Source: Perkinsus olseni (taxonomy: Eukaryota). Taken from it: a stretch of DNA of 20,000 bases. Location of the stretch: assembly GCA_013115125.1 (NCBI GenBank), contig JABANN010000081.1, positions 58,609 through 78,608 of the forward strand. The letters are read 5' to 3'. The notes beneath the pieces were generated by a model. It was not told where the DNA came from, did not search any database, and worked only from the letters and a program-made list of their open reading frames with translations. This document shows positions 78 to 19,505 of the stretch, one piece after another; positions within the stretch are counted from its first letter, which is position 1, and each line of letters opens with the position of its first letter. A program made the position numbers and the translations under genes.

Positions 78-99
78 CTATTAACTCAGTATTACTGAG
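78..99. repeat. 22-bp triple inverted-repeat lesion (degenerate)
   Basis: c-tattaa-c-tcagta-t-tactga-g; intact paralog has only ctactgag (+14 nt). Confidence 0.8.
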
Positions 100-122
100 C
101 ATTATAAATTACTTCTCAGTCA

Positions 123-144
123 CTCGAGCTGCTCGACTCGAGCA
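123..144. repeat. 22-bp triple inverted-repeat lesion
   Basis: c-tcgagc-t-gctcga-c-tcgagc-a; intact paralog has ctcgagga (+14 nt). Confidence 0.85.
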
Positions 145-171
145 GTACCAGACTACACGCCCCCTGAATGA

Positions 172-193
172 CTCCGCACTGCGGAATCCGCAG
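172..193. repeat. 22-bp triple inverted-repeat lesion
   Basis: c-tccgca-c-tgcgga-a-tccgca-g; intact paralog has ttccgcag (+14 nt). Confidence 0.9.
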
Positions 194-452
194 CACAGCG
201 ACCTGCAGGCTCCTTATCACAAAATCGCCCCACAAAGTCACCGTCCCAACAAGGAATCTCAACCCCGTATGTTGGCTCCGTCCTCAATTGCCATATCCCG
301 CTACCTCCCTACGGGGTGGGGACTCCATCGGAGTCAGTTGGAGGCACTCCAACTGAACGCTTCCGCTTCGTTCATCCGTGACAGCTTCTCTCGTAGAGCA
401 GCGAATACTGTTACCACCGTGCATCTCAAAATCTACTGTGGACACGGTCCAT

Positions 453-513
453 TGTGAGCCCCACCGGTACTCGGACCTTCCCGAGCCTGCATAAGTGTGA
501 GCCCCACCGGTAC
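453..513 (+). repeat. 18-bp direct repeat pair
   Basis: tgtgagccccaccggtac at 453-470 and 496-513. Confidence 0.8.
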
Positions 514-705
514 AAGTCGACATGAAGCGCGCTCGCAGGAACCCTTCTGCTGCTGATCGATTCCTAGAGTCTTCTGCTCCTTCCTCACATTCCTCTCAGG
601 CATTCTGTTCGGCCTCACACGTCGCCGCTAAACGAGCCGGGCTCGTTGTCATGGTAATACAGTCGGACCGAGCCACAAACAGTTCGATGTTATATCATGT
701 TATGC

Positions 706-17900: not shown

Positions 17901-17910
17901 ATGAATCCAT
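11922..17910 (-). CDS. BBS1: Bardet-Biedl syndrome 1 protein (BBSome subunit), multi-exon
   Basis: Colinear exon peptides match BBS1: MDSSQRVWIDAWECPSADFVSYS (17832-17910), MADVDASGEGRL (17715-17792), 17421-17507, IAVASGADLFVYRFLKPHLK (17311-17372), FTLPAIEATAEELAIWQ (17064-17114), [134 protein letters not shown] (stop 11922-11924). Some middle exon boundaries are unresolved. Confidence 0.92.
12217..12238. repeat. 22-bp triple inverted-repeat lesion (perfect, BBS1 intron)
   Basis: c-gtacag-g-ctgtac-g-gtacag-c. Confidence 0.9.
12500..12521. repeat. 22-bp triple inverted-repeat lesion (BBS1 intron)
   Basis: g-acagca-g-tgctga-c-tcagca-c. Confidence 0.85.
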
Positions 17911-18366
17911 GAGTAAGAGTGAAACGGAGGCAAGCTGTGTCCACCCCCTCCCCGCGCCCTTCAAAAGGTCGCTTTGAAATTGACCTGAACGTTCGTCAAT
18001 GATCCTTTGAACGCAACTGGACGAGCACGAGGGGTGTGTCCAAAAATCCGAAGGTGGTTCCCAGGCACTTCGTCTACCATCCGTAAGGGAGGCTACACTG
18101 GCGGTATGTAGGATCCACACCCCACCCGTTCCCTGTTGAACTGAGCCTTCTGGAGCACCGGAGTGACCAATCCGAAACACGGGAGCGGTGTAGTGTGATA
18201 GAGTATGATGTTGTTGTCGAACAACAGGTGTTCCCAGGAACGTCTTCTACCACGTTCAATATCATGATCCGGGGCCGACGATCCAGAGAGGGCTCGGTGA
18301 GACTTCAGAACAGCTTCGTCGGTTAGTGCTGAACGACACCATGACAGACAGGGTGTTCCAAATATT

Positions 18367-18407
18367 AGCATTCGGATTCAGTCAGGGCCTGACTGAATCC
18401 GAATGCT
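18367..18407. repeat. Perfect 20-bp inverted repeat with 1-nt centre
   Basis: agcattcggattcagtcagg-g-cctgactgaatccgaatgct. Confidence 0.95.
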
Positions 18408-18642
18408 GATTCTCCGCGTGACACCATTCGAGTGATGTGCAGTGCCGGCAGCCGACCCAAACTACTCCCCGTGGTCCACGAACTTCTCGCAGCGATGAGA
18501 ATTTTGATTCGGCCCGGTGCCGCTGATGCAAGTCAATGACTGATAATACTGGTAACTCGAGGACTGTATCAAGTACAACAAACAGTACATCATGAACATC
18601 ATTTTATAAACACTATTGTATCACGCATGGAATCAGTCAGGT

Positions 18643-19404
18643 CTACCTACGTGCTGCTTCCCAAGACTTCACCACCCTTTTCACATTCACAAGGCTCGGC
18701 AAAGGCAAAGCTCTCTCATAAAAGCTCGCAACCCATTCCAGTCCGGTATCATATCCTCGTGGCGGGTTCGTGGCGAGGATGACAAAAACCTTCCTACACT
18801 TGGCCATATTATCGTCTGCAGAATTGCGTTGGTGGGGAATCCAATTTCTCAATTCCGCATTAACCTCTTTCCTCAGTTTAACAAACGGCGTAAGGCCAGA
18901 GAAAAAGTCATAGGCTTCCTCAGCCTTGCCCATTTCCTCATATTCGATGGTCTCTTCGCCGGAACGTTTCGTAGTGACGGCAAATGCACCATTGCCTTCA
19001 AATCTGAGGTCAACCACAGGCGATACTGAGTGCAGATTACCGAGACTAATAACAGAAGAACGGCTACTCAGGGAAAGGTCGCTTCAATGTCACTTGTGAG
19101 CTTACCCGATAGAATGGTAGAAGGACTTTCCGTCCTTGGGGGTCCAGTCAATGAAGAAGCTCCCTTCAATGACCCTGCCTTTCTTTTCAAAATTATCTTC
19201 CAAACGAATATCCAACATCTTATTATCCCACTTGATCACACAGTGGTTATCAGAAGTCACGGATACGTCACCGAGGGCCTGTTCACGAAACTACAACGAT
19301 ACTGTTTAGAAGTGTGAGACTACATCTGCGAGTCTTTTGCTGCCTTGGAGTGCTGAGGCGCCAGATGATAGTAGAAGTAGAAGGGCGATAGTCGGCAGTG
19401 TCAT
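18643..19404 (-). CDS. Secreted hypothetical protein, ~224 aa, 3 exons
   Basis: Signal peptide MTLPTIALLLLLSSGASA. Exons 19324-19404, 19106-19278 and 18643-19063 with 45- and 42-nt GT-AG introns stay in frame. C-terminal part contains PFVKL...C...NPPRGY. Confidence 0.75.
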
Positions 19405-19483
19405 CGAAGAGATTTTGGTAGGCCAGGCAAAAATCGTCAGAAGGGTCCCCAGGCTAGTCCTCAGGCTAGGTTTCATAACAGCT

Positions 19484-19505
19484 GTGTCGGTCCGACACTG
19501 TCAGG
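19484..19505. repeat. 22-bp triple inverted-repeat lesion
   Basis: g-tgtcgg-t-ccgaca-c-tgtcag-g. Confidence 0.8.

Follow-up and report, generated by a model that had tools for sequence, protein, structure and literature searches.

A recurrent 22-bp palindromic structure in non-coding DNA of Perkinsus olseni, probably a scar of hAT-type transposon excision

Genes and features of the locus

We analyzed a 20-kb window of nuclear DNA from Perkinsus olseni, a parasite of molluscs, namely 20,000 nucleotides of contig JABANN010000081.1, from which all counts given below are taken. On its minus strand the window carries an ALMT-like open reading frame (ORF) at 5974-7548, which is 100% identical to an NCBI Perkinsus olseni protein, and the annotated protein BBS1 (P0002), which maps exon by exon to 19404-11925. 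The non-coding DNA of the window contains many copies of a 22-bp structure, in which a short sequence is followed by its inverted form and then by the forward sequence again. The excess of these structures is far above chance. Here, we describe their geometry, their location and their relation to the footprints left by cut-and-paste transposons.

The 22-bp structure has a fixed geometry

Each structure has the form s[1..7]+revcomp(s)+s[2..8], wherein an 8-mer s gives way to a 7+8+7 product with a net gain of 14 bp. The palindrome is centred on a single unpaired base, the complement of the last flank base, and the target 8-mer differs from site to site. An initial annotation of this DNA had listed 15 sites of this form and had called those at 2180, 11328 and 12217 perfect. 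We recovered 15/15 with exact coordinates, and their arm mismatches ranged from 0 at each of those three sites up to 4 at 3803.

A scan of the window for the form s[1..k-off]+revcomp(s)+s[off+1..k], with k=5 to 14 and off=0, 1 or 2, revealed enrichment only at k=8 and off=1, where 4 perfect sites, 14 with at most one mismatch and 18 with at most two were found, compared with 0.0 in 10 dinucleotide-preserving shuffles. At off=1 there were 0 sites at k=7 and at k=9 to 14; at off=0 there were none at any k, and off=2 remained at background. The sharp peak at k=8 that the initial annotation had expected is therefore present in the window, confined to the one-base offset. We also counted by parsimony, scoring a change in the middle arm once and using 30 block shuffles as the control. 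This yielded 4, 15, 20 and 32 sites at no more than 0, 1, 2 and 3 substitutions, respectively, versus 0, 0, 0.13 and 1.93 in the shuffles, the 32 including some shifted readings of one structure. The sites at 3569 (perfect), 3631, 5597, 9929, 10416, 11428 and 18212 lie beyond the 15 listed initially.

The same signal was seen in palindromes and in direct repeats. Perfect odd palindromes with 7-nt arms and a 1-nt centre numbered 27 (1.6 in shuffles), and even palindromes with 7-nt arms numbered 0 (0.8 in shuffles). Direct 6-mer repeats at a spacing of 14 occurred 16 times against 4.0 expected, whereas spacings of 7, 8 and 9, which correspond to classical short hAT footprints, gave 4, 4 and 7 against 3.2, 4.3 and 4.2. 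Since spacing 14 is in excess while the short spacings stay at background, one repair outcome dominates, in agreement with the initial annotation. Non-inverted direct 6-mer repeats were also in excess at spacings 10 (10 versus 2.7) and 12 (14 versus 4.8); these are separate from the palindromic class.

Individual sites, their decay and their variants

Perfect footprints lie at 2180..2201 (GAGTAGAATCTACTCAGTAGAT), 3569..3590, 11328..11349 and 12217..12238, the second of which was absent from the initial annotation. Footprints with one substitution are found at 123..144, 172..193, 706..727, 3680..3701, 3819..3840, 5597..5618 (upstream of an F-box-like ORF), 9113..9134 (87 bp upstream of a tRNA-Lys gene), 9647..9668, 10416..10437, 10976..10997 and 12500..12521. 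Two substitutions are present at 18212..18233, at 9929..9950, where both occupy outermost positions, and at 19484..19505, with the annotated start (19404) lying 80 bp downstream. At 3631..3652 and 11428..11449 the outer arms are identical and the middle arm carries two changes, both transitions in the latter. The most decayed footprints, with three substitutions each, are those at 78..99 and 3803..3824.

The arms of the 20 sites hold 25 mismatches, comprising 19 transitions and 6 transversions, which bears out the initial remark that mismatches are mostly transitions. The range of 0 to 3 substitutions per site together with the transition bias fits events of different ages. The mismatches are unevenly placed: 13/25 fall at 3/14 arm-pair comparisons (first arm s1: 4, s2: 4; third arm s8: 5), that is, at the outermost positions of the 22-mer. 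These might reflect lower fidelity at hairpin tips or during flap trimming.

Compound structures were found at three places. The target 8-mer of the 3819 site overlaps the third arm of the older 3803 site, the two target 8-mers overlapping with a 2-bp shift. The 10416 site is joined by an odd palindrome with 8-nt arms at 10433..10449, a two-arm form without a third arm that overlaps the third arm of 10416, and a fourth arm-like 7-mer, in inverted orientation, follows the 9647 site. Seven odd palindromes, the one at 10433 among them, are not part of a full footprint, compared with 1.6 odd palindromes in total expected by chance. Two of them, 6626 and 12075, are both exonic and probably due to chance. 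The largest is an intronic 47-bp odd palindrome at 18364..18410, with 17 perfect bases on each side of the centre base and 93.6% identity over 47, which is a candidate one-sided long hairpin footprint. Odd palindromes outside footprints, including this one with 17-nt arms, would be expected if one hairpin was sometimes opened far from its tip and joined otherwise.

The structures avoid coding sequence

We assembled a coding set of about 7.0 kb from the exons mapped exactly from the annotated P0001 and P0002 proteins together with the ORFs 1484-2003 and 3934-5388. None of the 20 sites falls in this set, an outcome with a chance probability of 0.65^20, or about 2e-4. The sites 12217, 12500 and 18212 lie in annotated BBS1 introns (12127-12252, 12319-12658 and 17791-18251, respectively), and several of the introns used are confirmed by CT..AC joints in RNA-like contigs. 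Apart from 19484 and 10976, the remaining sites are intergenic and cluster at 1-4000 and 9100-12500. Overall, the density is about one site per kilobase of window, or about one per 650 bp of non-coding DNA. The initial annotation had placed the structures only in introns, intergenic DNA and pseudogenes; the larger set agrees, with 0/20 in exons or in the two other long ORFs and with 10976 in a decayed paralog.

The BBS1 annotation itself may fuse two neighbouring genes, one at 19404-18652 and the other at 18326-11925. A search with the ORF 14826-15281 matched P0002 (886 aa) over the residues from exons at about 15380 downwards, and the sibling models P0003 and P0004 are without the first 216 residues (19404-18652).

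Insertions relative to paralogs and presence in other contigs

A repeat occurs in the window in two copies, 2-298 and 3834-4091, the second sharing sequence with the 3' end of an intact, expressed F-box-like ORF. These copies are paralogs, not alleles. At the places of the 78, 123 and 172 footprints, copy 3834-4091 keeps the single 8-mer: the gaps at 78 and 123 are clean 14-nt gaps, and the +14 at 172 adjoins a 3-nt indel. That 3-nt indel is the only other one in the alignment of about 300 bp, against three of +14.

A second, diverged segmental duplication links 527-2065 with 10065-11272. The first copy holds the small signal-peptide-like ORF 1484-2003, and the decayed copy of this ORF (from about 10678) contains the footprint at 10976 and an early stop. 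In an alignment of 500-2960 with 10040-11560, which at 64% column identity is too noisy for a clean placement of the 10976 insertion, the second copy shows an excess of 5+9 nt near 10976.

As far as contigs show, the sites are not assembly artefacts. The source-like DNA run X2 spans the entire window, and contigs of X7 and X8, which come from two other studies, span 78, 123, 172, 706, 2180, 5597, 9647, 9929, 10976, 11328, 11428 and 12217 with 0 gaps. Among these, 2180 and 11328 are present in contigs of both runs, 706 in the X7 contig 30-965, 5597 in the X7 contig 3972-5819, and 9647 in the X8 contig 9514-9955.

Target preference and mobile elements in the window

Hermes prefers the target nTnnnnAn and hAT elements duplicate 8 bp, according to excerpts of PMC10368747. 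At the structures described here, 18/40 half-sites had T at target position 2 or A at target position 7, against a background of 0.243 (p=0.0034), a preference that comes from 20 sites only and was eyeballed before it was computed. Buster-type hAT elements have a target with a central TA. This target was read by eye at about 2/20 sites, without enrichment, and we reject it for the structures described here. As for the products of excision, the palindromic insertions in Ac/Ds footprints have as their centre the complement of the base that adjoined the element (excerpts of PMC5873905). The 8-bp unit, the odd centre and the T2/A7 lean together match hAT chemistry.

A miniature inverted-repeat transposable element (MITE)-like element is present at 2260-2854. 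It is 595 bp long, has 14-nt terminal inverted repeats (13/14 matching), a TAT target duplication, numerous subterminal repeats in its interior and, at 2762-2839, a central palindrome, and it is multi-copy by contig depth (about 300-1300 versus about 88 for single-copy DNA). This element is ruled out as the source of the footprints, since its duplication is the 3-bp TAT and not 8 bp.

Two further segments are repeated. A short repeat at 1040-1166 is very high-copy, with a summed contig depth of about 19,900 in run X2 versus about 88 for a single copy. It has a constant boundary at 1164-1166 and variable opposite ends at 1043, 1087, 1109, 1124 and 1127, like a 5'-truncated retroposon, and it lies inside a 243-bp interval bounded by two nearly identical direct repeats of 20 nt at 923 and 1166. 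The other segment, 5531-5574, is likewise short and high-copy; in each of the four runs it has many loose ends to either side, and the footprint at 5597 is 23 bp away. An Rfam search of the window returned tRNA-Lys only, which means that no known RNA gene underlies the high-copy repeats. Metagenome scans yielded no further Perkinsus DNA: the ALMT-like protein gave 135 pattern matches with 0 confirmed, and a 26-nt piece of high-copy repeat gave 0.

Discussion

Excision of hAT-type transposons as the probable origin

Taken together, the 22-bp structures are probably excision scars of cut-and-paste DNA transposons with hAT-type chemistry, accumulated in P. olseni non-coding DNA. We propose the following route. 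Insertion of an element would duplicate an 8-bp target s. On excision, the transposase would nick each flank one base away from the element, and attack of the released 3'OH on the opposite strand would leave the flanks capped by hairpins, with the complement of the element-adjacent flank base at the tip. The host would then nick these hairpins at least 8 nt from the tip and not at the tip, by an Mre11/CtIP-like or similar activity, so that each end would unfold to a 3' tail with the reverse complement of the duplication. The two tails, complementary over exactly the 8 duplicated bases, would anneal; after trimming of flaps and filling of gaps, a repair of the microhomology-mediated or single-strand-annealing type would add 14 bp and give s[1..7]+revcomp(s)+s[2..8]. 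Such products would afterwards be inherited and decay by point mutation, with selection removing those in exons. We infer all of these steps, none of which is shown directly; they would explain why the length is fixed, why the offset is one base and why the sites have no sequence in common. Heavy turnover of elements and a repair pathway of this kind would be implied. In P. marinus, transgenes integrate mostly by non-homologous routes (excerpts of bioRxiv 10.1101/2021.06.11.447996), which is compatible with the model and uninformative on hairpins.

The initial annotation had also read the structures as hAT footprints. The 8-bp unit, the one-base offset and the T2/A7 lean support that reading in part, and the element itself is where it falls short. 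An element with an 8-bp target-site duplication (TSD) and terminal inverted repeats was not found in the window (0, versus 0.2 in shuffles), and no transposase family was matched by any of the 30 ORFs scanned (all 27 of at least 120 aa and 3 others). No report of hAT elements in Perkinsus was found in the literature searched, supplementary tables being outside its reach. These absences weigh against hAT excision, as do several other observations. In the contigs of four runs, from which rare variants are dropped and among which X7 and X8 are possibly one strain, no 14-nt indel, filled allele or insertion joint is listed at any site, the listing covering all but 19 joints and 107 loose ends; +A at 996 and +C at 1250 are the only indels listed over the window. 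As transposon scars, the structures are very dense, with three sites within 100 bp of one repeat copy in addition to the three compound sites. The clustering of mismatches at the outermost positions of the 22-mer is not predicted by even decay, and the small number of sites behind the T2/A7 preference, with the way in which it was noticed, tells in the same direction.

Alternative explanations

The same hairpin-and-anneal route could have been driven by a non-canonical agent, such as another 8-bp-duplicating element, known or unknown, a Merlin-like enzyme, or a host-domesticated transposase from the hAT/P/MuDR/Kolobok/Dada (C/DxxH) group, that would form flank hairpins with a one-base offset. 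In order of likelihood, a non-hAT agent of this kind comes directly after hAT excision, and we regard it as rather unlikely. The lack of a hAT element in the window speaks for such an agent, as does the content of P. marinus, in which Dada transposases, with a TSD of 6-7 bp, have been reported (excerpts of PMC3706591), along with conserved Merlin-related transposase ORFs without recognisable ends, Merlin having a TSD of 8-9 bp (excerpts of PMC8101967). A Dada-type duplication of 6-7 bp is nevertheless at odds with the lack of any signal at k=6, 7 or 9, and the T2/A7 bias and odd centre are the hAT pattern. The cleavage chemistry of Merlin is not, to our knowledge, known to form flank hairpins, which counts against a Merlin-like agent.

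Explanations without excision at these sites, or with excision of another kind, are less probable. In replication template switching, or fold-back synthesis, a nascent strand would jump to the opposite strand, copy a short stretch of it in reverse and switch back, with no need for a transposon. Loytynoja and Goldman reportedly showed in 2017 that template switches create short inverted duplications. Like the structures described here, short template-switch mutations are local inverted duplications without foreign sequence, and the window indeed contains no candidate transposon; unlike them, they vary in length and lack an 8-bp unit. Lengths would vary and microhomology would be needed at the switch points, whereas here the unit is always 8 long with an offset of one base, each site has a different 8-mer and the target bias would be left unexplained. 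Nothing in template switching fixes the length at 8, so this explanation is improbable. Programmed DNA elimination, in which a domesticated transposase would clear the sequenced, vegetative genome of elements confined to the germline, would reconcile many scars with the lack of any element in 20 kb. Ciliates, which are alveolate relatives, eliminate DNA with domesticated transposases in this way. We know of no germline/soma split in Perkinsus, which counts against it; moreover, the decay of the arms by 0 to 3 substitutions most simply reflects independent old events, and no unexcised copies were seen in the contigs of four runs. We consider it very improbable. The likelihood that chance or a sequencing or assembly artefact produced the structures is close to nil, given 20 sites versus 0.13 expected, sequences unchanged in contigs of runs from three studies, and depletion in exons.

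Relation to known excision footprints

Transposon excision footprints as such are already known. Those of hAT elements (Ac/Ds, hobo, Hermes, Tam3, Tol2) share with the structures in P. olseni the 8-bp duplication, the palindromic (P-nucleotide) additions and the nTnnnnAn lean (excerpts of PMC5873905 and PMC10368747). They differ in their heterogeneity, with 28 types among 128 Candida revertants (excerpts of PMC5873905) and varied indels after Tol2 excision (PMC3553969), whereas one product dominates here. Palindromes in experimental hAT footprints are also mostly 1-3 nt long, in contrast to the full 8 nt, the very high density and the absence of an element in the window. The nearest experimental counterpart is Ds in Saccharomyces cerevisiae, where hairpins are opened far from the tip, with arms of up to 20 nt and microhomology joints (Yu 2004 and Lazarow 2012, as cited in excerpts of PMC5873905). 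Such long Ds arms fit the rarer long or one-sided palindromes of P. olseni. The yeast Ds footprints are laboratory events at engineered donor sites, and the excerpts of PMC5873905 make no mention of a fixed 7+8+7 class.

Other hairpin-forming transposons match less well. Flank hairpins also arise with Transib and RAG, and Transib elements make 5-bp duplications. For Muta1, a Mutator-like element (MULE), a flank hairpin is likewise an excision intermediate; its palindrome is even, with 43+43 nt, and its excisions in yeast are >90% precise (excerpts of PMC5499845). In the window, there are 0 even palindromes, no signal at k=5 or k=9, the duplication lengths of Transib or MULE footprints, and 0 sites at off=0, and the odd centre favours hAT over MULE.

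No description of the 7+8+7 signature was found in the literature searched, supplementary tables being outside its reach. We likewise know of no account in which one palindromic product, comprising the full duplication, recurs about once per kilobase in the absence of neighbouring elements.

Implications for Perkinsus

We tentatively suggest that Perkinsus has, or recently had, an extremely active hairpin-forming transposon with an 8-bp TSD, or a domesticated nuclease, whose breaks are repaired almost exclusively by distal nicking and annealing of 8-nt tails, making +14-bp insertions a major indel class. If this is true, such insertions would possibly number tens of thousands genome-wide and would shape introns and intergenic DNA. 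The compound sites 3803/3819, 9647 and 10416/10433 raise the possibility that existing scars attract new hits. The scars would form a consensus-free record of past cut-and-paste activity that persists after the elements have gone and that repeat finders would miss. Moreover, near-uniform repair of hairpin-capped breaks in a perkinsid would bear on its end-joining pathways and on genome editing in Perkinsus. On the basis of one alignable paralog pair, the +14 class may drive the growth of non-coding DNA and supply small hairpin-forming motifs near promoters and in introns.

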